This document shows positions 8,271 through 58,860 of a stretch of DNA of 64,000 bases, piece by piece (within the stretch, counting starts at the first letter, position 1; every line of letters starts with the position of its first letter). The stretch lies in contig OZ241326.1 of NCBI GenBank assembly GCA_965199855.1, positions 896,001-960,000 on the forward strand, read 5' to 3'. Both the position numbers and the translations under genes were made by a program. The notes below the pieces were generated by a model. That model searched no databases, was not told the origin of the DNA, and saw nothing but the letters and a program-made list of their open reading frames with translations. Source of the stretch: a bacterium (lineage in GTDB: Bacteria; UBA8248).

Positions 8271-10916
<2,646 letters not shown>

Positions 10917-16779: not shown

Positions 16780-16871
16780 GAGTCCGCTTTCATCGCCGCG
16801 GCCGAGCCTCAGCCGCCCGGCGAGCGAAAATCCCGGGCGCGCCCGGAGAGCCCGCCCGAATGATGACCCCG

Positions 16872-17042
16872 CCCCTGTGCCGTGTGAGGTTCGCTTTGAA
16901 CCCAGCTTTCGCCAGGTGGGCGTCCAGATCCCCAGCTTTAGGCCCGACTCCCCGAGAGGAGGCGCTCACCACCGGGGAGAAGAACTCCCGTCAAAGTAGT
17001 ACTGGGTCAAGATGCTTTCCCCCATCACGAACACGGCAGGGC
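16872..17042 (-). ncRNA. ssrS: 6S RNA
   Basis: lies between zapA and 5-FCL (canonical synteny); ends pair (CCCUGCCGUGU / ACACGGCACAGGG); UUGACCCAG pairs with CUGGGUUCAA around a central bubble. Confidence 0.85.
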
Positions 17043-17121
17043 CAAAGCAAAACCGCACTATGCCACCAAAGCCGGAGGATTGATACCGGGGGGAAGCTGC
17101 CGCGTGGAGAGAGATTTCGGC

Positions 17122-24915: not shown

Positions 24916-24990
24916 TGGTAGGCGCGGGCGGTTTTGAACCGCCGACCTCTTGCGTGTCAAGCAAGCGCTCTCCCCCTGAGCTACGCGCCT
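24916..24990 (-). tRNA. tRNA-Val(GAC)
   Basis: AGGCGCGTAGCTCAG...CTTGACACG...GGTTCAAA...CCTACCA cloverleaf with encoded CCA. Confidence 0.95.
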
Positions 24991-28543: not shown

Positions 28544-28628
28544 TGGTGCGAAGGGGGGGACTCGAACCCCCACGCCCGAAGGCACTGGAACCTAAATCCA
28601 GCGCGTCTGCCAGTTCCGCCACCCTCGC
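28544..28628 (-). tRNA. tRNA-Leu(TAG)
   Basis: GCGAGGGTGGCGGAACTGG...TTTAGGT...long variable arm...GGTTCGAGTCC...ACCA. Confidence 0.95.
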
Positions 28629-46448: not shown

Positions 46449-49400
46449 TCAGTGGGAAGCTGCCGGGCGGCGGGCGCTCCTGACGCTTCTGATCTGCCGG
46501 ACGAGCGGAACGCCCCCGCAGATCAGGCCCGCCGCCAGCATGACGGCGCTGAAGAAGATGACGAACAGGATGAGCGCGATGAAGCAGACGAACAGGAGAA
46601 TCCGCTCATACCCGTAGAGCCTGTCCAGGAGCCAGCCCTGCGTCCCCGCCGAGAAGGCGATGAAGCCCAGGAGCGTCATGGAGGCGGAAAGGGCGACGCG
46701 AAGGGGGTGCGCGAAGGTGAGCAGCGCCGGGTCGAACATGAACAGGAAGGGCACGATGAAGCCCACGATGGCGAAGCGAAGCGACATCATCGACGTCTTG
46801 AAGTAGGGCGCGCCCGCCAGCTTCGCCCCCACGAGCGAGGCTATCGCCACGGGCGGCGTGATGGCCGAGAGTATCGCGAAGTAGAAGATGAACATGTGGG
46901 CGGCGACGCGATCCCCCTTCGCGGCGACGAACGCCTGGGTCCATTCCGCGCCGTAGACGTGCGTGAGCTCGGGGGCGACGAGCTTGATGAGCACGGGGCC
47001 GCCCAGAATGGCGAGCAGCACGTACGCCGCCGTCGTCGGCATCCCCATGCCCAGGACCGCGCAGCAGACCGCCGTGAGAAGCAGCGCGACGAAGAAGCCG
47101 TCCAGCCCGATGTAATACGCGCACCCGCCGCCCGCCGCCGCGCCGAAGAGGCAGACGTCCTGGGCGAGCGCCTCTATCATGAAGGCGAACTTGTTGCCCA
47201 CGCCCGTGATGGTGAGCACCTGGACGACGACCTCGATGGTCGCCAGCGTCACCGCGAACTCGGCCCCCTGCCTGCCCCCCACCCGCAGGGCGTCGCGGAT
47301 GCTGAGAATCCACTTCGAGGCGCTCTCGGCGGCGCGCGCGCCCGCGCCCGTCTCCCCCGTCCTCCTCGCCCGCTCCAGGTAGGTGAACGGGTTGCAGGCC
47401 ACGGCCAGCGCCTGGCTCGCGCTCGCCCGCGCGTCGCCGCCGCCGGAGGGCTTCGGGGCGAAGGAGAAGATGACCCTCTGGACGAGGAAGGCCAGCCCGA
47501 AGAAGATGAGGCCGTCGTAGATGAACCCGAAGGGGATGAACCATTCGCCGAAGTCGGCGACGGGGGGGGCGAGCGCGTAGATGCCCTTTTGCGCGTAATA
47601 CGCCCCGACCCAGAGCATGGCGAAATACCAGGGAATGGTGGTGGCGGGCTGGGGGCGGCTTCCTCCGAGGAGCGCCCGCGCCCCGAGCAGCACCAGAATG
47701 AGGGCGGCGCCCGCCACGCCGGAGGACCAGCCGAGCGTCCCCCACAGCGCCAGCAGGGTGAGCGGGAAGACGGCGAGCCAGTTGCGCTCCGTCTCCCGCC
47801 AGAATTCGCCCGCCCAGGAGAAGACGCGGATGAAGACGCTCAGCAGGACGAAGCCGGCGGCGCCCAGCGCCAGGGCGGCGCGCGCCGCCCCGCCCCAGGT
47901 CGGCTCTTCATAGACGCCCAGGGGCAGGCCGAGACCCAGCTCGAGAACCGCGAGAAGGGCGAACAGGAAGAACGCGAAGACCCAGAACGTGACCGGCACG
48001 AAAACGAATATCTCGTCGGAGACGGCTTTCTCCCCCCGCCTCAGCGTTCCCAGGAACTCCGCCGCGTTGCGGTAGAACCAGACGCCCACCATGATGAAGA
48101 CCGACATGACGCCGGCGAACACGGGCGTCCGCCCCTCGAAGAGGAAATAGACCAGAAACGCCAGGGGCACGAGATAGAACCACCCGTCCTTCAGCTCCGC
48201 CCTCCAGCTCGGAATCTCGGCGGGGGGCAGGGGCTTGATGTTCAGCGCGCCCGCCGCGAAGTGGATGTTGATGCCCACGATGGTGAAATAGAGGATGGCC
48301 GGGATGGTGGCGTAGCCGATGATCTGGAAGTAGGGCACCTCGATGAGCTCGCTCATGATGAAGGCGCCCGCGCCCATGACGGGCGGCATGATCTGCCCGC
48401 CGCTGCTCGCCGCCGCCTCCGCCGCCCCGGCGATGTGGGGGCTCAGCCCGATGCGCTTCATCAGGGGAATCGTGAAGGTGCCGGTGGTCACGACGTTGCC
48501 GGAGGCGCTGCCCGACACCGTGCCCATGAGCGCGCTCGAGCCCACGGCGGCCAGGCCCGCGCCCGCGCGCATCTTCCCGAAGAGGCCCAGGGCGAAGTTC
48601 ACGAAGAAGCGCCCCGCGCCCGACTCGTGCAGGAACGCCCCCAGAATCAGGAACATGATGATGAAGGTGGCCGAGATGACGACCAGAAAGCCCAGGACGC
48701 CCCCGATGAAGTCCGTCGAGAGCTTCGCCTGAAGCTCGATCCACGTGTGGCCGCCGTGCCCGAAGGGGGGGGCGAACAGGTTGCCCCAGACCCCGTAGGC
48801 GAAGGCGATGACGGCCAGCGTCGGAAGCGGGGGGCCGAAGCAGCGCCGCGTCAGCTCCAGGGCGACGACGAGCATGACGAAGCCCACGCGCGCGTCGCCT
48901 ATCGTGGGCGCCCCGGGGCGATCCACCATGTCCTCGTGGTAGTAGAACAGGTAGAGGCAGGCGGTCGCCACGAAAAAGAGCATCCCGGCGTTCAGCCCGA
49001 TCGTGAACCCCGCGGGAAAGGGGTGGGCCGGATGCGCCTCGAACACCCGCTTGATGCGCTTTTTGGCCCAGAACAGGGGAAACGCGCAGACGAGCGCCGG
49101 CCAGAGGTAGAAGACGCTCCGCGCCTCGTCGCTCTGGGCGGCCCACAGGCCCACCCGCCAGCCGCCCAGAATGAGCGCCGCGAAGAACACCGCGAGGAAG
49201 CCGCCCGCCTTCCTCACGCCCTCGGCGGGCCGGAAGAATATGGCGAAGAGGGTCCACATCGTCGGTATGGCGGAGCACGCGATCAAAAGCCACCAGAAGG
49301 TGGGCTCCTGCGCGCTCTCGGGCAGGGAATCCCAGTAGAGGAAGAGCAGCGGCGCGGGAGCGAAGCCCAGCAGCCAGAGGGCGAGCGCGAGCCAGGACTT

Positions 49401-49784
49401 CTCGACGGCCATCATCGCCAGCCAGATGGCGAAGGGAAGCGCATAGATCCACCAGACGCTCGCGTCGGACCAGCCCTCGCCCATCTCATAGACGAAATAG
49501 TAGAAGATCACGGCGGGAACCAGCGAGACGACGTACAGGACGGGCAGAAGCTTCAGCTTTCGGATCTTGTCCCCGTAAATCTCGGGCATCGCCCCGGCGC
49601 CGCCGATGAGGAGAATGGCGTAGGCCAGGAGCATGTGCATATTGGGGTGCATCTCGCCCGGCAGGGGCCGCAGATAGACCGCCGAGATGTGATACAGGCC
49701 CGAGAGCACGCAGAGCCAGGCGGCGGTGAAAACCAGCGCCCGGACGAGAGGCGCCGACCGGGTGGGGTCCGATTCGGTAGTCAT
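46449..49784 (-). CDS. TAXI-TRAP fused 4TM/12TM permease with large extra membrane insertions (1111 aa)
   Basis: SGSASGNVVTTGTFTIPLMK, ASSGGQIMPPVMGAGAF, LGMGMPTTAAY, SAITPPVA. Confidence 0.92.
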   Translation of the reverse strand: MTTESDPTRSAPLVRALVFTAAWLCVLSGLYHISAVYLRPLPGEMHPNMHMLLAYAILLIGGAGAMPEIYGDKIRKLKLLPVLYVVSLVPAVIFYYFVYEMGEGWSDASVWWIYALPFAIWLAMMAVEKSWLALALWLLGFAPAPLLFLYWDSLPESAQEPTFWWLLIACSAIPTMWTLFAIFFRPAEGVRKAGGFLAVFFAALILGGWRVGLWAAQSDEARSVFYLWPALVCAFPLFWAKKRIKRVFEAHPAHPFPAGFTIGLNAGMLFFVATACLYLFYYHEDMVDRPGAPTIGDARVGFVMLVVALELTRRCFGPPLPTLAVIAFAYGVWGNLFAPPFGHGGHTWIELQAKLSTDFIGGVLGFLVVISATFIIMFLILGAFLHESGAGRFFVNFALGLFGKMRAGAGLAAVGSSALMGTVSGSASGNVVTTGTFTIPLMKRIGLSPHIAGAAEAAASSGGQIMPPVMGAGAFIMSELIEVPYFQIIGYATIPAILYFTIVGINIHFAAGALNIKPLPPAEIPSWRAELKDGWFYLVPLAFLVYFLFEGRTPVFAGVMSVFIMVGVWFYRNAAEFLGTLRRGEKAVSDEIFVFVPVTFWVFAFFLFALLAVLELGLGLPLGVYEEPTWGGAARAALALGAAGFVLLSVFIRVFSWAGEFWRETERNWLAVFPLTLLALWGTLGWSSGVAGAALILVLLGARALLGGSRPQPATTIPWYFAMLWVGAYYAQKGIYALAPPVADFGEWFIPFGFIYDGLIFFGLAFLVQRVIFSFAPKPSGGGDARASASQALAVACNPFTYLERARRTGETGAGARAAESASKWILSIRDALRVGGRQGAEFAVTLATIEVVVQVLTITGVGNKFAFMIEALAQDVCLFGAAAGGGCAYYIGLDGFFVALLLTAVCCAVLGMGMPTTAAYVLLAILGGPVLIKLVAPELTHVYGAEWTQAFVAAKGDRVAAHMFIFYFAILSAITPPVAIASLVGAKLAGAPYFKTSMMSLRFAIVGFIVPFLFMFDPALLTFAHPLRVALSASMTLLGFIAFSAGTQGWLLDRLYGYERILLFVCFIALILFVIFFSAVMLAAGLICGGVPLVRQIRSVRSARRPAASH

Positions 49785-50059
49785 GCGTTTCCTTTCCTGT
49801 CTTCGCCGGGGCGGCGTCACCGCGGCGAAACGGAAGCCGTTTGGCGTGAACCGCTCCATTCTAGCGGATAGTCCCGCCGCTTCGCCAGCCTCCCGGGGAA
49901 TTTCTCCGCCGGCTTCCGCGCTTGACCGAATTCCCGAGGGTTGCTTTACTCGGGCGGAATCGCTACACTTGAGAATCCTCGAACTTCATTGACGAGATCG
50001 GACATCCCGAACCCGCAGCAGGCGCGAGGTTCACCACTTTGCTCGAAAAGGAGAAGCGA

Positions 50060-51031
50060 ATGAGGAAACGCACACTTCGGCTGATCGCGCTGGCGGCGGG
50101 CCTGGCTCTCGCCCTCGGCGCGGCGCAGACGGCGGAGGCGGCCAAGATCCTTCTGGGAACGTCCCAGCCCGGCGGCGCCACCTTCGAGATCGGAACCGCC
50201 ATCGGCAAGGTCATCACGGACAACTCGGGCGGCAAGATTCAGGTGTCCGCGGCCGTCACGGGCGGCTCCACCGCGAACGTCCGCACCCTCCAGAAGAAGA
50301 ACAAGATGCAGCCCTTCCGCATGGGCATGGCCACGGCGCCCGCCGTCGCTTGGGGGCAGACGGGCAGAAAGCCCTTCAAGAAGCCCCAGGACGTTCTGGC
50401 GCTCGGGGCGCTCTACCCGCTGACGACCGTCTACACCACCTTCAAGACCACGGGCATCAAGAAGTGGTCCGACCTCGGCGGCAAGAGGTTCGTCGTGGGC
50501 GGGCGCGGCGGCTCCATCTACATCGTCACGCAGCTCGCGCTCAAGCACAGCGGCGTCAAGGCGAAGCGCGAGTTCTTCAACAACAACCAGAACTCGGCCG
50601 CCATCAAGGATCAGCGCGTGGACGCGGGCTTCTTCTTCCTGAACGGGGGCGTGCCCGCGCCCGTGTACATGGACCTCGCGCGCACGCTCTCCGGCAAGCT
50701 CCACTTCTTCGGGCCGGACGAGGCGACCATCAAGAAGCTCGCCGAGAACGAGGCGGGCATCGTGCGCGACGTGGTGCGCGCGGGCTCCATTCCCGGCTAC
50801 GGCAAGGACGTCGTCAGCTGGGGGCAGATGTGGTCGATGATGACGAGCAGCAAGATGAGCAGCGGCAACGCCTACGCGATCGTCAAGACGCTGTATGACA
50901 ACCACGAGAAAATCTCGAAATACCACCCCGCCGGAAAGTTCATCACGAAAAAGACCGGCCTTCGCGGCATGAAGAAGCTCAAGATTCATCCGGGCGCGGC
51001 GCGCTACTGGAAGGAATCGGGCATGATGTAG
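50060..51031 (+). CDS. TAXI-family TRAP solute-binding protein
   Basis: signal peptide, GTSQPGG, TGGSTAN, IHPGAARYWKE. Confidence 0.9.
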   Translation: MRKRTLRLIALAAGLALALGAAQTAEAAKILLGTSQPGGATFEIGTAIGKVITDNSGGKIQVSAAVTGGSTANVRTLQKKNKMQPFRMGMATAPAVAWGQTGRKPFKKPQDVLALGALYPLTTVYTTFKTTGIKKWSDLGGKRFVVGGRGGSIYIVTQLALKHSGVKAKREFFNNNQNSAAIKDQRVDAGFFFLNGGVPAPVYMDLARTLSGKLHFFGPDEATIKKLAENEAGIVRDVVRAGSIPGYGKDVVSWGQMWSMMTSSKMSSGNAYAIVKTLYDNHEKISKYHPAGKFITKKTGLRGMKKLKIHPGAARYWKESGMM

Positions 51032-51034
51032 GCT

Positions 51035-51289
51035 TCACCGAAGCGCGAAAGCCCCCCGCCGAGGCGGGGGGCTTTTTGTTTTTTGCTGTCCCGTCGCGCT
51101 CCTCACGCGGGACGGGAGCGATTCGGGCGGCGCCTCCGCCGCGGCATCGCGCCGGGGCGTTTCAGCGGGGTAGTTGTAGAGCGCGACCAGACAGCCGTCG
51201 GTCTCGCTCCGCGTTTGGGCGAGCGCCGTCCCCGCCGCCGCGCAGCCGAGAACGAAAACGGCGAGCCCGAGCGTCCCGAAGCGGCGCAT
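51035..51289 (-). CDS. small hypothetical secreted protein
   Basis: GGAGG RBS and signal-peptide-like MRRFGTLGLAVFVLGCAAAGTALA; ORF runs into the terminator. Confidence 0.3.
   Translation of the reverse strand: MRRFGTLGLAVFVLGCAAAGTALAQTRSETDGCLVALYNYPAETPRRDAAAEAPPESLPSRVRSATGQQKTKSPPPRRGAFALR
51048..51084 (+). terminator. intrinsic terminator
   Basis: AAAGCCCCCCGCC-GA-GGCGGGGGGCTTT followed by a T-rich tail. Confidence 0.8.
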
Positions 51290-51427: not shown

Positions 51428-51605
51428 GTTTCGGAGAAGGGTTCGCATCGGCGGCGGGGCGTTCGCTACGGGATTTTCCGGTTGAAAAACGCTTTCAATC
51501 CCTATAAACTGTTTCGCATGCCAATAGAACGGCGCGGCTGCCGGCGTATTCATTCGCGCCCTTGCGGTTCATGGCCACGCGGTCTTTTCCGGGAAACGGC
51601 GCTTC

Positions 51606-53564
51606 GTGAGTGAATCCGCGAATTTGCTTGAAATGCTGAAAATCGACAAATCCTTTCCGGGCGTCCACGCGCTCAAGGAGGTCGATTTTCATCTCGCCGA
51701 AGGCGAGGTGCACATTCTTCTGGGCGAGAACGGCGCCGGAAAATCCACCCTCATCAAGATTCTGGCGGGCATCTACCACGCCGATTCGGGCGAAATCAGG
51801 ATCGGCGGAGCGCCTACGGTCATTCCCGACGCGAGAACCGGGCGCGACCTGGGCATCAGCGTCATCTACCAGGAGCTGAACCTGGTGCCCGACCTGAGCG
51901 TCGCCAAGAACGTCTTCCTGGGCCGGGAGCCCGTCATCCCCGGCGTGATGCGGCGCGTGGACTGGGCCAGGGTCGAGCGGGAATCGCGGGCGATCATGGA
52001 GCGCCTGGACGCGCGGATTGACGTCGGCGCGCCGGTCCGCTCCCTGAGCGTGGCGGATCAGCAGATGGTGGAGATCGCCCGCGCCCTCGCCTTCGACTGC
52101 AAGATCCTGGTGATGGACGAGCCCACCTCCTCCCTGAGCGGGCACGAGATCGAGGAGCTCTTCAAGGCGGTGAAGCTCCTGCGCGAGCAGGGGGTCGGCG
52201 TCATCTACATCTCGCACCGGCTCGAGGAGGTCCACGAAATCGGGGATCGGGTTACCGTCCTGCGGGACGGGGAATACATCGGCACGTGGGAGGTGCGGGA
52301 CGCCGAGCTCGACTTCCTGATCACCCGGATGGTGGGGCGCGCCCTCGACGAGAAATTCCCCTGGACGCCCCGGGAGCGCGGAGAGGTGGCGCTGCGCGTG
52401 CGCGGCCTCACCCGCGGCGGCGCGTTCGAGGACATCGACTTCGACCTCCACTACGGGGAAATCGTCGGCCTCTCGGGCCTCGTCGGCGCGGGAAGAACCG
52501 AGGTGGCGCGCGCCGTCATGGGGGCGGACCCGGTGGACGGCGGCACCGTGGAGATGACCGGCGCGACGAAGGAAAAGGAGGCGATCCAGCGTCTGCCCCA
52601 CTATCCGCTCTGGATGGCCGCCGCGGACGTGCTCGTCTTCATGCTGGCGCTTCCGCTCTTCACCGTCATTTTCCAGGGAATCTACGACCCCGTCACGCTC
52701 AACATGAACGCGCCGCCGCCCCTGTTCAGCGCGGCGTGGTTCTATGAGTGGATCATCGGCGGGCCGCTCTACAACATAGCGAACGGCCCCGTCCCCTACC
52801 TCGCCGCCGCCGGGCTGGCGCTCGCGCGGCAGGCGGGGCTCTGGTTCATGGAGCGGCGATATCGCTGGAGCGTCATGGCCGCCGACCTCGCGAGCTGGTA
52901 CGCCCTGGCGATCTGCGCGATGGTGGCGGCGAGCCTCTTCACCCAGAATTTCGTTCTCGAGTGGGTGATGATCTGGGGCGGCGCCGCCATGGTCCTCCTC
53001 CGGTTCCTGAACACCCTCACCCACGAGCGCAAGTGGACGCCGAGCCTCGCCATACGGCGCGGGCTGGGGCTTCTGCCCGAGGACAGAAAAACCCAGGGGC
53101 TCACCCAGACGCTCTCGGTCGCCTTCAACGTCACGAGCGCGAACCTCATCCGCCTCATCAAGCGGTGGCTGCTCAACCTGAGCCTGGAGAAAGACCTCGT
53201 GGACGAGCACGTCCGCCAGCTGAAGATCATGACGCCGGATCAGGACACGCGAATACGCTTCCTCTCGGGCGGCAACCAGCAGAAGGTCGTCCTCGCCAAG
53301 TGGCTCTTCCGGCGCGCCAACGTGCTCATCTTCGACGAGCCGACGCGCGGAATCGACGTGGGAGCGAAATTCGAGGTTCACTCGCAGATGCTGCGCCTCG
53401 CCGAGGGCGGCGCGGCGATCATGATGATATCGAGCGAGCTGCCCGAGATTCTCGGAATGAGCGACCGCATTCTGGTGATGCGCGAGGGGCGCCTCACCGC
53501 GGACATCAAGAGGGAAGACGCGACGCAGGAGGGAATTCTGCGCTGCGCCATGACGGCGGAGTGA
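51606..53564 (+). CDS. sugar ABC transporter ATP-binding protein (RbsA-like) with inserted multi-TM domain
   Basis: GENGAGKST, DEPTSSL, GLVGAGRTE, PEDRK, LSGGNQQKV, DEPTRGIDVGAK; hydrophobic insert at about 52563-53036. Confidence 0.92.
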   Translation: MSESANLLEMLKIDKSFPGVHALKEVDFHLAEGEVHILLGENGAGKSTLIKILAGIYHADSGEIRIGGAPTVIPDARTGRDLGISVIYQELNLVPDLSVAKNVFLGREPVIPGVMRRVDWARVERESRAIMERLDARIDVGAPVRSLSVADQQMVEIARALAFDCKILVMDEPTSSLSGHEIEELFKAVKLLREQGVGVIYISHRLEEVHEIGDRVTVLRDGEYIGTWEVRDAELDFLITRMVGRALDEKFPWTPRERGEVALRVRGLTRGGAFEDIDFDLHYGEIVGLSGLVGAGRTEVARAVMGADPVDGGTVEMTGATKEKEAIQRLPHYPLWMAAADVLVFMLALPLFTVIFQGIYDPVTLNMNAPPPLFSAAWFYEWIIGGPLYNIANGPVPYLAAAGLALARQAGLWFMERRYRWSVMAADLASWYALAICAMVAASLFTQNFVLEWVMIWGGAAMVLLRFLNTLTHERKWTPSLAIRRGLGLLPEDRKTQGLTQTLSVAFNVTSANLIRLIKRWLLNLSLEKDLVDEHVRQLKIMTPDQDTRIRFLSGGNQQKVVLAKWLFRRANVLIFDEPTRGIDVGAKFEVHSQMLRLAEGGAAIMMISSELPEILGMSDRILVMREGRLTADIKREDATQEGILRCAMTAE

Positions 53565-53619: not shown

Positions 53620-54633
53620 GTGAGCACCGCGGCCCCGGCGGGGAGTGAGAAGCTCATTCTGGGATATCCGGCCAAGGACGTCCCCTGGGAGCGCGTCCTC
53701 CTCATTTCCGCGTTCCTCGTCCTGATGGGCTTCTACGCCTTCGCGACCGAGAATTTTCTCACCCTCGAGAACTTCGTGAACGTCGTGCGCCGCGACGCCT
53801 GGCTCTTCTTCCTCGCCTACGCGCAGACGCTGGTCATCGTCTCGGGCGGCTTCGACCTCTCCCAGGGCTCCATCATGAGCGTGGTGAGCGTGATGGCCTG
53901 GAGCGCGATGCTGCACTTCGGGTTCTTCATCGGCCTCATCGCGGGCCTGGGCATCGGCCTGCTGTGCGGCGCCGTCAACGGCTTCTTCGTCGGCGTCGTC
54001 CGGGTGTATCCGTTCATCGCCACGCTGGGGATGCTCTTCGTCGGCAGCGGCGCGGCGCAGCTCTGGACGGGCGGCCTGCAGATGGGCGGCGCGCGTGAGG
54101 GGGCGACGCTGCCGAAGCACGTGGAGGAGGCCTACGTCTTTCTGGCGAAGGGCAGCCTGGGGCCCATCCCCTTCACGTTCATCTGGATACTCATCGCCCT
54201 GGGCGCCATGTGGTATCTGCTCAAATACACCCGCTTCGGCACCTACGTCTACGCTCTGGGCGGAAGCGAGCAGACGGCCATCTCCGCGGGCGTCAGCTTC
54301 CCCGCCATGAAGCTCGCCATCTTCGGCGTCGGCGGCCTGCTGTGCGGCTTCGCGGGCCTTCTTCTCTCGGCGAACGTCAGCGCGGCGGGCGAGCCGAGGC
54401 TGGGCGGCGGCGACCAGCTCCTCCAGTCCATCGGGGCGACCATCATCGGCGGCACGCACATCTTCGGCGGGCGGGGCGGCGTGCTGGGCACCACCCTGGG
54501 CGTATTCCTCATCATATTCCTGGTGAACGGACTGAACATCATGGGAATCGACACATACCGGCAGCAGATCGTCGTCGGTCTGGTCATCCTCTCATCCATC
54601 TGGGTCAGCACCCTGCGCGAGCAGAAGAACTAG
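53620..54633 (+). CDS. sugar ABC transporter permease (RbsC-like)
   Basis: GGFDLSQG, PFIATLG, TRFGTYVYALGG, IIGGT. Confidence 0.92.
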   Translation: MSTAAPAGSEKLILGYPAKDVPWERVLLISAFLVLMGFYAFATENFLTLENFVNVVRRDAWLFFLAYAQTLVIVSGGFDLSQGSIMSVVSVMAWSAMLHFGFFIGLIAGLGIGLLCGAVNGFFVGVVRVYPFIATLGMLFVGSGAAQLWTGGLQMGGAREGATLPKHVEEAYVFLAKGSLGPIPFTFIWILIALGAMWYLLKYTRFGTYVYALGGSEQTAISAGVSFPAMKLAIFGVGGLLCGFAGLLLSANVSAAGEPRLGGGDQLLQSIGATIIGGTHIFGGRGGVLGTTLGVFLIIFLVNGLNIMGIDTYRQQIVVGLVILSSIWVSTLREQKN

Positions 54634-54648
54634 GGGAGATTCCGCGTC

Positions 54649-55644
54649 ATGGCGAATACAGCGGAGGCGCCGGCCAGACCCGCCGCCTCCTTCCTGTCCG
54701 CGTTCAACTACGAGAAATACGGCCTGCTGGCGGTGTTCATCCTGATGATGCTCGTCTTCTCCCTCCTCCAGCTGATGGGCTACGTGAACAACTTCATCGA
54801 GGCCCACAACCTGACGAACCAGCTCCGCAACGCCTCGCTGCTCTTCTTCATCGTCGCCGGCCAGAGCATGGTGCTCCTCGTGTCGGGCATCGACCTGAGC
54901 CAGGGCTCCCTGCTCAGCCTCTCCAGCGTGGTGATGGCCCAGGGCATCCTGGACTTCGGCCTCGCCGTGGGCGTGCTGATGGGCGTCGGCATGGCGGCGA
55001 TGTTCGGCTTCATCAACGGCTACCTCGTGGGCCGCGTGAGGATACAGCCCTTCATCGTCACCCTGAGCATGCTCTTCATCTGCGCGGGCATCGCCCTGGT
55101 GTTCACGGGGGGGCGCACTATCCACCAGTTCACGAGCGAGCAGAAGGACATCCTCCAGGCCATCGGGCTCACGGACTTCTTCCACGTCCCCGGCACGCTG
55201 TTCATCGCCGTCGTCTTCTTCGTCGGCCTCCACCTGCTGACGAAGCGCACGGCGCTGGGCCGCGCCATCTACCTCACCGGCGGCAACGAGGAGGCCGCGC
55301 GGCTCTCGGGCATCGACACCGGCAAGGTGAAGCTCATCTGCTACCTGATCAGCGGCGTCTGCGTGGGCATCACCTCGTTCCTCTATCTGGCGCGGCTGCC
55401 CGCCACGAACGGCCTGGCGGGCTTCCAGCTCGAGTTCCAGTCGCTGGCGGCCACCGTCGTGGGCGGCACGACCTTCCACGGCGGCGAGGGCGGGGTGGCG
55501 CAGGCGGCGATCGGGACGCTGTTCCTCACGTTCCTGCTCAACGGCCTGATTCTCCTGGGGGTGGGCACCTTCGCCCGGGAGGTGGTGGTGGGCGTTCTGC
55601 TCATCGCGGCCGTCGTGCTGGGCTCCCGCAGGCGGCGGGAGTAG
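54649..55644 (+). CDS. sugar ABC transporter permease (RbsC-like)
   Basis: GIDLSQG, GGNEEAARLSGI, VVGGT. Confidence 0.92.
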   Translation: MANTAEAPARPAASFLSAFNYEKYGLLAVFILMMLVFSLLQLMGYVNNFIEAHNLTNQLRNASLLFFIVAGQSMVLLVSGIDLSQGSLLSLSSVVMAQGILDFGLAVGVLMGVGMAAMFGFINGYLVGRVRIQPFIVTLSMLFICAGIALVFTGGRTIHQFTSEQKDILQAIGLTDFFHVPGTLFIAVVFFVGLHLLTKRTALGRAIYLTGGNEEAARLSGIDTGKVKLICYLISGVCVGITSFLYLARLPATNGLAGFQLEFQSLAATVVGGTTFHGGEGGVAQAAIGTLFLTFLLNGLILLGVGTFAREVVVGVLLIAAVVLGSRRRRE

Positions 55645-55734: not shown

Positions 55735-56793
55735 ATGAGGAAACTGCTCCGCTCTTTCGTGATTCTCGCCTCCGCCGCGGCGTTCGCGCTCGCGTCGGCG
55801 GCGGCCGTCCCCGACGCCGGGGCGCGGCTCAAGGCGAAGAAGAAATACAAGATCGCCGTCGTCGTGCCGAACGGCGTCGATCCCTACTTCTTCTCGAAGT
55901 GGTACGGCAGCGTCCTGGCGGCCAAGGAGGCCGGCGTGACCGTGACCATGTTCGACGCGGGCGGCTACGAGTTCCTGCCCAAGCAGGTGGCGCACGTGGA
56001 GGACATCATCGCCGCGAAGTATGACGGGATGATCATCTGCCCCATCAGCACCAAGGGCATGGTGGACGCCGTGCACAAGGCGATGGACAACGGCATCAAG
56101 GTCGTCGTGGACAACATCGACCTGGACAGCCCGCGCGTCAGGAACCGCGTCATGAAGAACAGCTACGAGCTGGGCCTTCTCATCGGCGCCACGCTGGCGC
56201 ACGGCATCAACTACGAGGGCAAGGTGATGATGCTGCCCGGCCCCAGCGGCATCGAGATGGTGACCTCCATGGCGAAGGGCTTCGAGGAATACATGAGCCA
56301 CTACCCGAAAATCAGGATCGTGGCCAAGGAGTTCACCAAGTCGAACGTGCAGGCCGCCTACCAGACGGCGGAGGACCTGCTCAAGAAGCACCCGGACGTG
56401 AAGGGCATCTACCCCTGGGCCACGCTCATCGCGCGCGGCACGGTGGACGCCGTGAAGGCGGCGGGCTACAAGCCCGGCCAGATCAAGATCGTGACGCACA
56501 ACCTCGTCGTCGGCATCGAGAAGGACATCCGCGACGGCTGGGTGCACGCGGCCGTGCTGGCCGAGCAGATCGCCATGGCGAAGGAGGCCGTCTACAACGT
56601 GATCGACCTGATCGAGGGGCGCCAGCCGCCCGGCGCCCCCCACCGCGGCGGGACGCTCAGCTACATCCAGAACTTCATGGCCTATCAGCACAACCTCGAC
56701 ATCCTGGATCGCAGCGGCATCGAGGCGCCCAAGGAGTGGATGATCAAGCGCCAGAAGCGCGCGGCGAACATCGTGGGCGGCAAGCGCCGCTAG
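55735..56793 (+). CDS. sugar ABC transporter substrate-binding protein
   Basis: signal peptide, type I periplasmic binding fold (DPYF, DGMIICP, HPDVKGIY). Confidence 0.88.
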   Translation: MRKLLRSFVILASAAAFALASAAAVPDAGARLKAKKKYKIAVVVPNGVDPYFFSKWYGSVLAAKEAGVTVTMFDAGGYEFLPKQVAHVEDIIAAKYDGMIICPISTKGMVDAVHKAMDNGIKVVVDNIDLDSPRVRNRVMKNSYELGLLIGATLAHGINYEGKVMMLPGPSGIEMVTSMAKGFEEYMSHYPKIRIVAKEFTKSNVQAAYQTAEDLLKKHPDVKGIYPWATLIARGTVDAVKAAGYKPGQIKIVTHNLVVGIEKDIRDGWVHAAVLAEQIAMAKEAVYNVIDLIEGRQPPGAPHRGGTLSYIQNFMAYQHNLDILDRSGIEAPKEWMIKRQKRAANIVGGKRR

Positions 56794-56815: not shown

Positions 56816-56857
56816 GGAAAACCCCGCCGGGGGGCCGCCCCCGGCGGGGTTTTTTCC
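56816..56857. terminator. bidirectional intrinsic terminator
   Basis: GGAAAACCCCGCCGGGGG...CCCCCGGCGGGGTTTTTTCC between convergent genes. Confidence 0.8.
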
Positions 56858-56877: not shown

Positions 56878-57957
56878 CTACGGGCCCCACGCGTGGACGC
56901 TGAGTCCCATGTATCCGGTCGCTCCGCCGGGCTTGGGATCGGATATGCGCTTCGTCTGAACCGCCCCGCTCCCGTCCACCGCCCGCGCCGCCGCCGGATA
57001 GAAGCCGCTTTCCCCGAAGCGCATGGGAAACGCCCAGACGCTCCAGGCGAGGGGCCCGAGCGGCTCCTTGAGCAGGGCGGACGACCAGGGGCGCAGAAGC
57101 CTCCCCTGGCCGTAGGTCACCTCCACCCTGCGGATTCCGCGCTCCCCGGCGAAGGCCGAGCCCACGAGCCAGACTTCGGGGGCGCGAACCTCTACGCGCC
57201 TTCTGGGCGCCTCGAAGCGGCTCAGCGTCTCGACGATCGCCTCGTTCGACCAGCCGCGCTTCTGCCAGTAGCCGCCGTGTCCTTCGGCGGCGACTTCGAT
57301 GGATTCGATCCACTTCACGTTTTTGAGGCCATAGACCCCCGGAACCAGGAGCCGGAGCGGCGCGCCGTGCTCCCGCGGCAGATATTCTCCGTTCATTTTC
57401 GCGCAAAGGAGCGTTCTCGAATCGAGCGCCTGCTCGAAGGATATCGAATCGTGGTAGCCGTCCGCCGCGCGAAAGACGACCCGGGCGGAGACCGAGCGGC
57501 GAAGGCTCTCCGCCGCCCCCGCGCGCTCGATGAGCCCGCGAAGCGGCGTCCCCCGCCAGAGGACGTTTCCTATCTGCCCGCCGCCCACGGGGTTTCCGAT
57601 GCAGGTCATCGCCGCCCAGGCCTCCGCCCGCGGCAGCGCGTCCAGGTCGGAGAAGGAGAGCGAAAGGGGGGCGCGAACCTCGCCCCCCACCCTCAGCCGC
57701 CATTTCCGGGGGGACGCCGCCGGCGGCGCGCCGCCGATGCTCTGCTCGTAGAAGTCCTCGTTCGCCGTAACCTCGGGCAGGACGCGCGCGGCGAACTCCA
57801 GGATTCCCTCGCCGGGCCGCGGCGTCGCCACGGGGCGGCTGTTCAGCCAGTCGAACAGGCGGCCCGCCATCGAGGCCCGCGCGCCGCGCGCCGCGCCGAT
57901 GAGCGCCAGAGGCGCGAGCCCCGCCGCCCGCAATGCCCGGCGTCTCGAAACGCTCAC
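56878..57957 (-). CDS. sulfite oxidase-family molybdopterin oxidoreductase, Tat-like N-terminus
   Basis: MTCIGN Mo-ligand Cys, HGAPLRLLVPGVYGLKNVKW, GYWQKRGW; SRRRAL. Confidence 0.88.
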   Translation of the reverse strand: MSVSRRRALRAAGLAPLALIGAARGARASMAGRLFDWLNSRPVATPRPGEGILEFAARVLPEVTANEDFYEQSIGGAPPAASPRKWRLRVGGEVRAPLSLSFSDLDALPRAEAWAAMTCIGNPVGGGQIGNVLWRGTPLRGLIERAGAAESLRRSVSARVVFRAADGYHDSISFEQALDSRTLLCAKMNGEYLPREHGAPLRLLVPGVYGLKNVKWIESIEVAAEGHGGYWQKRGWSNEAIVETLSRFEAPRRRVEVRAPEVWLVGSAFAGERGIRRVEVTYGQGRLLRPWSSALLKEPLGPLAWSVWAFPMRFGESGFYPAAARAVDGSGAVQTKRISDPKPGGATGYMGLSVHAWGP

Positions 57958-58284
57958 GGCTCTCCCTCCGCATGATGGGCGAACGCCCCGCATTCTACGC
58001 GACGGCGGCGACATGTCGAACCCCCGCCATTCCCGGCGTCAACCCCGACAGGGCGGAGGGATTGCGGAATCCGGGGCGCGCCGTTCCAAAACGGACGGTT
58101 CCCGAATTGCGGGGCGGGCCCGAGGAGGGGCCGCCCCTACGAAACCGTACCCTCGCCGCCCCCGCCACAGGTGGCCGCCCCTGCGAAGGCGAAACCGCAT
58201 GGGTCATCCTCTTTTTCGCTTTCGCGTCCGGCGCGGGGCGTGGTATGCTTCTCGCGCGTGAAAGCTTCGGAGAGGAGGCGGGCG

Positions 58285-58860
58285 ATGATCGGCTTCGACA
58301 CGCTCCGGGCGATGGAGTCGCTCCGGGATTCGGGCTTCGAGGAGTCCCAGGCGCGGGCGGTCGTGGATACCTTCAAGGACGCCGTCGCCGGCAGCGTCGC
58401 CACGAAAGCCGACCTCCAGGAGGTCAAAACCGAGCTCCAGGCCGAAATTCAGGAGGTGAGGACGGGCCTCCAGGCCGAGATGCAGGAGGTGAGGACGGGG
58501 CTCCAAGCCGAGATACAGGAAGTGAGGACGGGCCTCCAGGCCGAGATACAGGAGGTGAAGACGGGCCTCCAGGCCGAGATTCAGGAGGTGAGGGCCGAGA
58601 TACAGGAGGTGAAGACGGGTCTCCAGGCCGAGATACAGGAAGTGAGGGCCGAGATTCAGGAGGTGAAGACGGGTCTGGAAGCGTCCATCTCGAGTCTTCG
58701 GAGCGATGTGGAGGCGTCCATCGCGGGGCTTCGGGGCGAGGTGGAGACCTCCATCGCGCGGCTCGAGGCGCGGACGCAAAGGTTCATGTTCGGCATGGCG
58801 CTGGGGATCGTGGGGCTGAACGTCACCCTCACCTTCGGCCTCCTCAAGTTCTTCTTCTAG
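58285..58860 (+). CDS. DUF1640/CCDC90-like membrane-anchored coiled-coil protein, copy 1 (191 aa)
   Basis: FDT..LRDSGFEESQARA head, ATKADL neck, repeat stalk, C-terminal TM. Confidence 0.85.
   Translation: MIGFDTLRAMESLRDSGFEESQARAVVDTFKDAVAGSVATKADLQEVKTELQAEIQEVRTGLQAEMQEVRTGLQAEIQEVRTGLQAEIQEVKTGLQAEIQEVRAEIQEVKTGLQAEIQEVRAEIQEVKTGLEASISSLRSDVEASIAGLRGEVETSIARLEARTQRFMFGMALGIVGLNVTLTFGLLKFFF

Follow-up and report, generated by a model that had tools for sequence, protein, structure and literature searches.

A conserved membrane-type domain inside the second nucleotide-binding domain of a CUT2-type ABC importer ATPase

In the textbook ATP-binding cassette (ABC) importers, the motor, which is formed by the nucleotide-binding domains (NBDs), and the membrane parts are located on separate polypeptides, and the two talk to each other only via coupling helices. 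The RbsA, AraG, MglA and XylG proteins (CUT2, TC 3.A.1.2) are the closest described relatives of the protein reported here, which is the tandem-NBD ATPase encoded at positions 51606-53564 of a stretch of 64,000 nucleotides from a bacterium of the GTDB lineage UBA8248 (assembly GCA_965199855.1, contig OZ241326.1, positions 896,001 to 960,000 of the forward strand). This whole stretch is called the window hereafter. The window ATPase resembles the CUT2 proteins in having two cassettes per chain, with a canonical NBD1 and an NBD2 that carries an Arg/Ser pattern at the catalytic positions, and in being encoded in an operon with two BPD_transp_2 permeases and a Peripla_BP_4 binding protein. However, the models of the CUT2 proteins cover 492-513 positions and describe soluble proteins, whereas the window ATPase has about 155 additional hydrophobic residues inside NBD2. 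The gene and the insert are as follows.

51606-53564, plus strand: tandem-NBD ABC ATPase of the CUT2 (RbsA/AraG) type, 652 aa, GTG start (open reading frame list, Pfam, NCBIfam)
52563-53036, plus strand: insert, aa 320-477, 158 aa in the limits of the preliminary description of this DNA; the inserted residues proper, by alignment, are aa 320-474 (52563-53027)

The class of the ATPase was determined from its domains, its motifs and its operon. PF00005 (ABC_tran) of Pfam matched the 652-aa protein at E=7.2e-46 in three stretches. The NCBIfam models for AraG, RbsA, XylG, YtfR and MglA, which have the lengths given above, matched it at E=1e-139 to 1e-160, and over all the CUT2 equivalog models the E values were 1e-102 to 1e-160, with two stretches for each model. 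Each of these matches was split in two, and the break was located at about residue 319-323. The scores were 534.8 bits for AraG (curated cut-off, 689), 509.2 bits for RbsA (745) and 507.4 bits for XylG (699), and every CUT2 equivalog match was below its curated cut-off; the ATPase is therefore not an equivalog of any named transporter. On reading the protein sequence, two ABC cassettes were recognized in a single chain, complete with Walker A, Walker B and signature motifs. In NBD1, the Walker A Lys and the H-loop His are the canonical residues. NBD2 carries Arg in place of the Walker A lysine and Ser at the H-loop position, and the same two residues are found in an insert-less relative, P0026. 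The preliminary description, which was made from the sequence by itself, had called all of the Walker and signature motifs intact, and this holds by the own pattern of the CUT2 family but not for the Walker A Arg and the H-loop Ser of NBD2. By domain, motif and operon, the ATPase belongs to the CUT2 tandem group. It departs from the soluble protein of about 500 aa without membrane segments that is usual for this kind, since it has 652 aa and contains hydrophobic windows, which are confined to aa 333-472. The nearest clusters to the whole protein in the ESM Atlas were ordinary sugar ATPases of 494-538 aa.

The boundaries of the insert were defined by comparison with P0026, which comes from another genus in the window's family (genome G012, locus L050). 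In the BLASTP alignment, aa 7-319 and aa 475-652 of the window ATPase were 58% and 63% identical to P0026, respectively, and between these two blocks P0026 has 3 residues against about 155 in the window ATPase. The insertion site in P0026 consists of six residues between a conserved Gly, at the end of a beta-strand, and a conserved Thr-Pro, which starts the helix leading to the Q-loop region. The inserted residues, about 155 in number, take the place of a surface hairpin of 3-6 residues in the antiparallel-beta part of NBD2. The 158 or so in-frame residues that had been assigned to the insert at the outset are thus correct to within three residues. The operon of P0026 has the same order, i.e., ATPase, permease, permease and binding protein, and its permease and binding protein are 41% and 39% identical to those of the window. 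On the other hand, the TAXI-type TRAP and molybdopterin-oxidoreductase genes that neighbour the window operon are absent from the 14 kb examined around P0026. Because of this different neighbourhood, P0026 may be a paralogue instead of a positional orthologue.

The insert was found in 27 of the 51 genomes of the phylum, with the window's own genome counted, and in three of the 15 genera. It was always present as a single copy without stop codons, within open frames of 628-710 aa. In the window's genus, 21 of the 22 further genomes carry it, and the sole genome without a match is 79% complete; the second genus is represented by one genome, which has the insert, the third has it in four of five genomes, and none was detected in the other 12 genera. 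A search for homologues, which had been left to later work when the insert was first noticed, gave 21 database proteins with the insert at 62-99% identity. Eighteen of them have 643-670 aa and three are shorter (391, 428 and 439 aa). The carriers are uncultured marine and sponge-associated bacteria. Several of the sequencing runs that hold the stretch are labelled as sponge metagenomes, and no RNA dataset is among the listed runs.

These counts, together with the assemblies, bear on the trivial explanation that the insert is an assembly chimera, a mis-called frame, an intein or a mobile element. The region 52200-53400 was spanned by a single, gap-free contig in each of four runs from four studies, and the differing letters numbered 0-8; one of the four is near-identical to the window and may be its source. 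The insert is in frame in independent assemblies, several of which are single-contig genomes. The GC content is even across the insert, and the DNA repeat check detected only short repeats at the chance level, none of which flanks the insert. With the 27 genomes in frame and the gap-free contigs from four studies, the chimera that the preliminary description had named as a danger is excluded, and its statement that DNA repeats are not evident was borne out. Assembly joints that could be taken for an insert-less form were rejected, as their sides have just 24-30 letters and lie within conserved ABC motifs, and they were read as other ABC genes. Inteins obey rules for the residues at the splice junctions. 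The insert starts with Ala and does not end with His-Asn, and no Pfam family, the intein families included, matched it at E≤1, in agreement with the earlier remark that intein motifs are lacking. The probability of an artefact of any of these kinds is practically nil.

The conservation of the insert was analyzed by aligning the window protein with 17 of the 21 database proteins, after removal of the three short ones and of P0003 (99% identity to the window). The alignment contains long invariant runs within the insert. In a second alignment, which was made of 18 inserts translated from genomic loci, 158 columns were obtained without a gap, 69 of which are invariant, and no insertion or deletion (indel) was found in the insert down to 68% identity. 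The ratios of nonsynonymous to synonymous substitution (dN/dS) were calculated by the Nei-Gojobori method from 24 sequences (276 pairs), and the results for the three parts of the protein were as follows.

aa 1-318: median dN/dS 0.052, 238 usable pairs
Insert: median dN/dS 0.112, maximum 0.256, 246 usable pairs
C-terminal 175 aa: median dN/dS 0.055, 243 usable pairs

From its median and maximum compared with the other two medians, the insert experiences strong purifying selection, which is relaxed about two-fold relative to that on the catalytic parts. Locus L034 (= P0007), from the window's genus, has an extra codon within 8475-8999, in the part for the C-terminal NBD. The additional residue is a Trp that follows the conserved Arg-Trp in the helical subdomain, and the 18-protein alignment contains no other internal indel. 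L034 was kept in the dN/dS set and is out of register in the C-terminal region, and medians are therefore quoted; the spurious maximum of 1.09 in that region results from the register shift caused by this one codon. Within the insert, the best conserved part is the first loop, with a column identity of 0.88 as compared with 0.71-0.80 for the helices. Invariant polar residues are located within or at the ends of the helices, namely Asp341, Arg408-Gln409, Asp427, Thr-Gln-Asn 446-448 and Glu452.

The insert resembles a membrane domain in its hydropathy and charge. The 19-residue Kyte-Doolittle means exceeded 1.4 only at 333-365, 422-454 and 449-472; the rest of the ATPase reached 1.04 at most. 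The windows were also scored on a summed per-residue insertion scale, which gives approximate values. The parts of the insert, with the best 19-residue windows on this approximate scale, are listed below; charges are family means of Lys plus Arg (K+R) and Asp plus Glu (D+E).

52563-52607, plus strand: N-side linker, aa 320-334, charged, with a short predicted helix at 319-328, predicted to be cytoplasmic; K+R 3.6 (aa 319-334)
52608-52679, plus strand: hydrophobic helix 1, aa 335-358, Kyte-Doolittle up to 2.32, best window +1.25, invariant Asp341
52680-52790, plus strand: loop 1, aa 359-395 (37 residues), aromatic/proline-rich, predicted to be periplasmic; K+R 0.4, D+E 2.3
52791-52853, plus strand: hydrophobic helix 2, aa 396-416, marginal, best window +7.46, invariant Arg-Gln at 408-409
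52854-52877, plus strand: loop 2, aa 417-424, basic, predicted to be cytoplasmic; K+R 1.7, D+E 0.1
52878-53018, plus strand: hydrophobic helices 3 (aa 425-446) and 4 (aa 451-471), best windows +0.73 and +3.31

On the same approximate scale, the ten best windows of permease 1 of this operon scored from -0.43 to +8.65, and the lowest window of the ATPase outside the insert scored +8.71. Helices 1, 3 and 4 thus fall within the range of the permease helices, and helix 2 is like the weakest permease windows. Helices 3 and 4 are joined by an invariant four-residue turn, T-Q-N-F (446-449). The insert is therefore predicted to contain three clear membrane helices and one marginal one, and the preliminary count of about four hydrophobic helices agrees with the hydropathy and with the helices of the AlphaFold2 models, helix 2 (396-416) being the marginal member. 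By these values, the insert appears to be hydrophobic enough to span a membrane. The K+R means also alternate along the chain: besides the values given for the N-side linker and loop 2, the C-side linker has 1.8, as compared with 0.4 for loop 1 and 0.1 for the turn between helices 3 and 4. Both halves of NBD2 must be cytoplasmic and therefore an even number of passes is required; the charge pattern fits the predicted four-pass topology with both termini inside (N-in/C-in).

AlphaFold2 was run on the whole ATPase with an alignment of 18 rows, and on the insert alone. Both runs placed helices at 335-356, 396-415, 421-445 and 451-475, and a short helix in loop 1 at 376-382. The mean predicted local distance difference test (pLDDT) score was 60 for the whole protein, dropping under 50 for most of the insert and the helical subdomain behind it, and 55 for the insert alone; from both models, only the secondary structure was used. 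A complex prediction for residues 315-482 with both permeases, entered as alignments, returned no verdict (score of 0.00, mark of 0.32) and speaks neither for nor against a contact. In the copy of the PDB searched by sequence, neither a CUT2 ATPase (E≤1e-40) nor a permease (E≤1e-3) was found; at E≤1e-15, just generic single-NBD matches to the ATPase were obtained.

The insert is an orphan in the searches performed. No Pfam or NCBIfam family matched the 158 residues even at E≤1. The phmmer search against 1.84 billion representative proteins returned one family member and two other proteins, P0024 and P0025, which were rejected as relatives, since on reading their sequences they proved to be tandem-repeat proteins with a compositional match. 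A profile of 18 inserts detected neither a free-standing gene nor a further copy in the 51 genomes of the phylum; a match in G008 at E=0.29 was disregarded as an insert copy. The ESM Atlas gave no usable match to the insert. The possibility that the insert is a fragment of a BPD_transp_2 permease was examined by hhalign, and the probability was 0.5% against permease 1 (116 sequences) and 0.3% against permease 2 (103 sequences); the insert therefore did not arise by duplication of a part of the membrane domain of this transporter. A literature search at the level of listings and abstracts returned no published description of a membrane insert in an importer ATPase, and passages of PMC13543919 and PMC10839748 do not bear on this subject. 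The architecture had not been recognized when the insert was first noticed, and neither a curated family nor a published account with the same architecture has been found since. A conserved membrane-type domain inside a CUT2 importer ATPase is apparently unpublished.

The ATPase gene is the first of a four-gene unit, whose other features are as follows.

51047-51076: terminator-like hairpin, strong, ending the upstream TAXI-TRAP binding-protein gene
51482-51510, plus strand: promoter-like site ahead of the ATPase gene, weak; 9/12 matches in a consensus scan, one found against 0.7 expected in shuffles
53620-54633, plus strand: permease 1, 337 aa, BPD_transp_2 (Pfam/NCBIfam)
54649-55644, plus strand: permease 2, 331 aa, BPD_transp_2 (Pfam/NCBIfam)
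55735-56793, plus strand: periplasmic binding protein, 352 aa, Peripla_BP_4, with a TorT-like best curated match below the cut-off
56835-56850, plus strand: terminator-like hairpin with a T-run, closing the four-gene unit

The two permeases and the binding protein that had been assigned to the operon in the preliminary description were thus found. The order of ATPase, permease, permease and binding protein was observed in 20 of 21 loci, where it is preceded by the TAXI-TRAP genes and followed by a molybdopterin oxidoreductase, and the 21st is on a contig of 9.7 kb that stops within permease 2. A consistent addition of a regulator or partner gene to the operon was not seen in these 21 loci. The permease 1 orthologues are at least 74% identical and the next relatives are at most 45% identical, which indicates a discrete permease subfamily that travels with the insert. 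In the complete genome of the window (3.04 Mb), the window ATPase was the only match to a query of the C-terminal NBD at E≤1e-30. The best curated match of the binding protein was TorT (NF008185), the periplasmic protein that senses trimethylamine N-oxide; its score of 98.9 bits, against a cut-off of 200, was ahead of all of the sugar-binding equivalogs. From this order, the substrate of the transporter may not be a classical monosaccharide. The nearest solved relatives of the binding protein are CUT2 monosaccharide-binding proteins.

Several further features were noted around the operon. The TAXI-type TRAP system upstream consists of a fused permease of 1136 aa (46449-49859, minus strand) and an NMT1_3 (TAXI) binding protein (50039-51031, plus strand), and is kept alongside the ABC operon in 20 of the 21 loci. 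The best stretch of the DctM model on the 1136-aa permease covers residues 328-598, with two stretches in all, and large parts of the protein are left unexplained by it. A protein with a molybdopterin-binding oxidoreductase domain (Oxidored_molyb; 56878-58014, minus strand) converges on the end of the operon and is found at the same place across the window's genus and also in a genome of another genus, G050 (locus L051). A tandem DNA repeat is located at 58417-58763, with a unit of 33 bp (also scored as 66 and 54 bp), about 4.8 copies and 90% match; it is followed by a second 33-bp array, and one frame reads as a Gly/Asp/Pro-rich repeat. Elsewhere in the window, a 6S RNA gene (16862-17045, minus strand, 80.9 bits) and two tRNA genes (24919-24990 and 28547-28628, both on the minus strand) were found.

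We consider it moderately probable that the insert is a four-helix integral-membrane domain, which anchors NBD2 beside the permeases and serves as an auxiliary transmembrane module with a periplasmic loop; the ATPase itself is probably a membrane protein. The insert would have arisen once, in the ancestor of the three related genera, within a hairpin at the surface of the antiparallel-beta region of NBD2, which is the C-terminal domain and non-canonical. The four helices would span the membrane with both ends in the cytoplasm, the domain would hold NBD2 at the membrane beside the permease pair, and the aromatic/proline-rich loop 1 of 37 residues would be exposed to the periplasm. The insert may pack against a permease, and may possibly touch the binding protein or the periplasmic loops of the permeases. 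A conserved loop predicted to be periplasmic and invariant polar residues predicted to lie in the membrane point to specific protein contacts, since a greasy tether alone needs neither of them. The link from helix 4 to the Thr-Pro has about 7 residues, so that the insertion point must lie near the membrane-facing side of the NBD. Three points weigh against this proposal. Both structure models have pLDDT values below 50-60 over the insert, and no fold is established by them; helix 2 is only marginally hydrophobic and bears the invariant Arg-Gln pair; and with a C-side linker of only about 7 residues, the model fails if the hairpin is far from the membrane. The self-anchored ATPase of the preliminary description agrees with the hydrophobicity, the positive-inside charge, the purifying selection and the occurrence in 27 genomes, and its insertion into the membrane is a prediction. 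The roles suggested there for the domain, namely sensing, regulation or the recruitment of partners, are candidate roles.

The same features could also be explained in other ways. If the insert were a regulatory sensor, which detects a periplasmic or membrane signal (a ligand, the lipid state or the occupancy of the binding protein) and gates the hydrolysis at NBD1 through NBD2, its packing on the permeases would be secondary. The high conservation of the predicted periplasmic loop, the invariant polar residues in or at the ends of the helices, and the position within an NBD2 with non-canonical Walker A and H-loop residues are consistent with this, and accessory regulatory parts on importer ATPases are known; however, no ligand-binding family matched the insert in Pfam, NCBIfam or the ESM Atlas, the 37-residue loop is small for a sensor, and the operon has not gained a constant regulator or partner gene, so that we regard a sensor as unlikely. 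A more specific form of signaling, in which the loop contacts the docked binding protein or its ligand and the helices work as a transmembrane allosteric wire into the non-catalytic NBD2, would bypass the coupling helices of the permeases and couple the availability of substrate to ATP hydrolysis, and this appears distinctly unlikely.

The insert might instead be hydrophobic and still not cross the membrane, as a peripheral, interfacial or soluble helical domain such as an amphipathic surface anchor or an oligomerisation domain. The marginal hydrophobicity of helix 2 and of the loop-1 helix, together with the conserved charged residues within the helices, would suit such a domain, and the structure models are too weak to decide. 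Against it, three segments of at least 19 residues reach Kyte-Doolittle means of 1.6-2.3, their summed scores match those of genuine permease helices, and the K+R values alternate as a four-pass topology expects; we hold a non-crossing domain to be quite improbable. The insert could finally be a tolerated passenger, i.e., a hydrophobic stretch of foreign or de novo origin that entered a permissive loop at the surface and has no role in the transporter, as might be thought from the lack of relatives in the 1.84 billion representatives, the 51 genomes and the ESM Atlas, from the narrow distribution in three of 15 genera, and from an evolution about twice as fast as that of the NBDs. A neutral passenger, however, would decay or vary in length, and the dN/dS of 0.11 (maximum 0.26 over the 246 usable pairs), the constant length down to 68% identity and the 69 invariant columns out of 158 make this very improbable. 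Among these explanations, the membrane domain that anchors NBD2 beside the permeases is the most probable.

Three questions are posed by this operon, which amounts to a natural experiment: how much additional membrane mass can be tolerated by the architecture of an ABC importer, what the purpose of the non-catalytic second NBD is in the CUT2 ATPases, and whether signals can reach the NBDs via a second transmembrane route. The insert is in addition a candidate for an orphan fold. The practical impact is limited, as the carriers are uncultured and the family spans only three genera.

Two known systems can be compared with the insert. The regulatory insertion in NBD1 of CFTR, an exporter-type protein, is a soluble and disordered segment of about 30 residues between the first two strands. 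Both are lineage-specific segments in the antiparallel-beta part of an ABC NBD whose fold is kept, but the CFTR segment, with its small size and disorder, differs from the window insert, which has about 155 residues and is of the membrane type. The C-terminal domains of MalK and MetN are regulatory accessory domains of importer ATPases. They and the window insert are alike in being extra modules on the motor subunit of an importer, where the former modulate the motor and the latter may do so. However, those of MalK and MetN are soluble C-terminal domains in the cytoplasm, whereas the module of the window ATPase is internal and hydrophobic.

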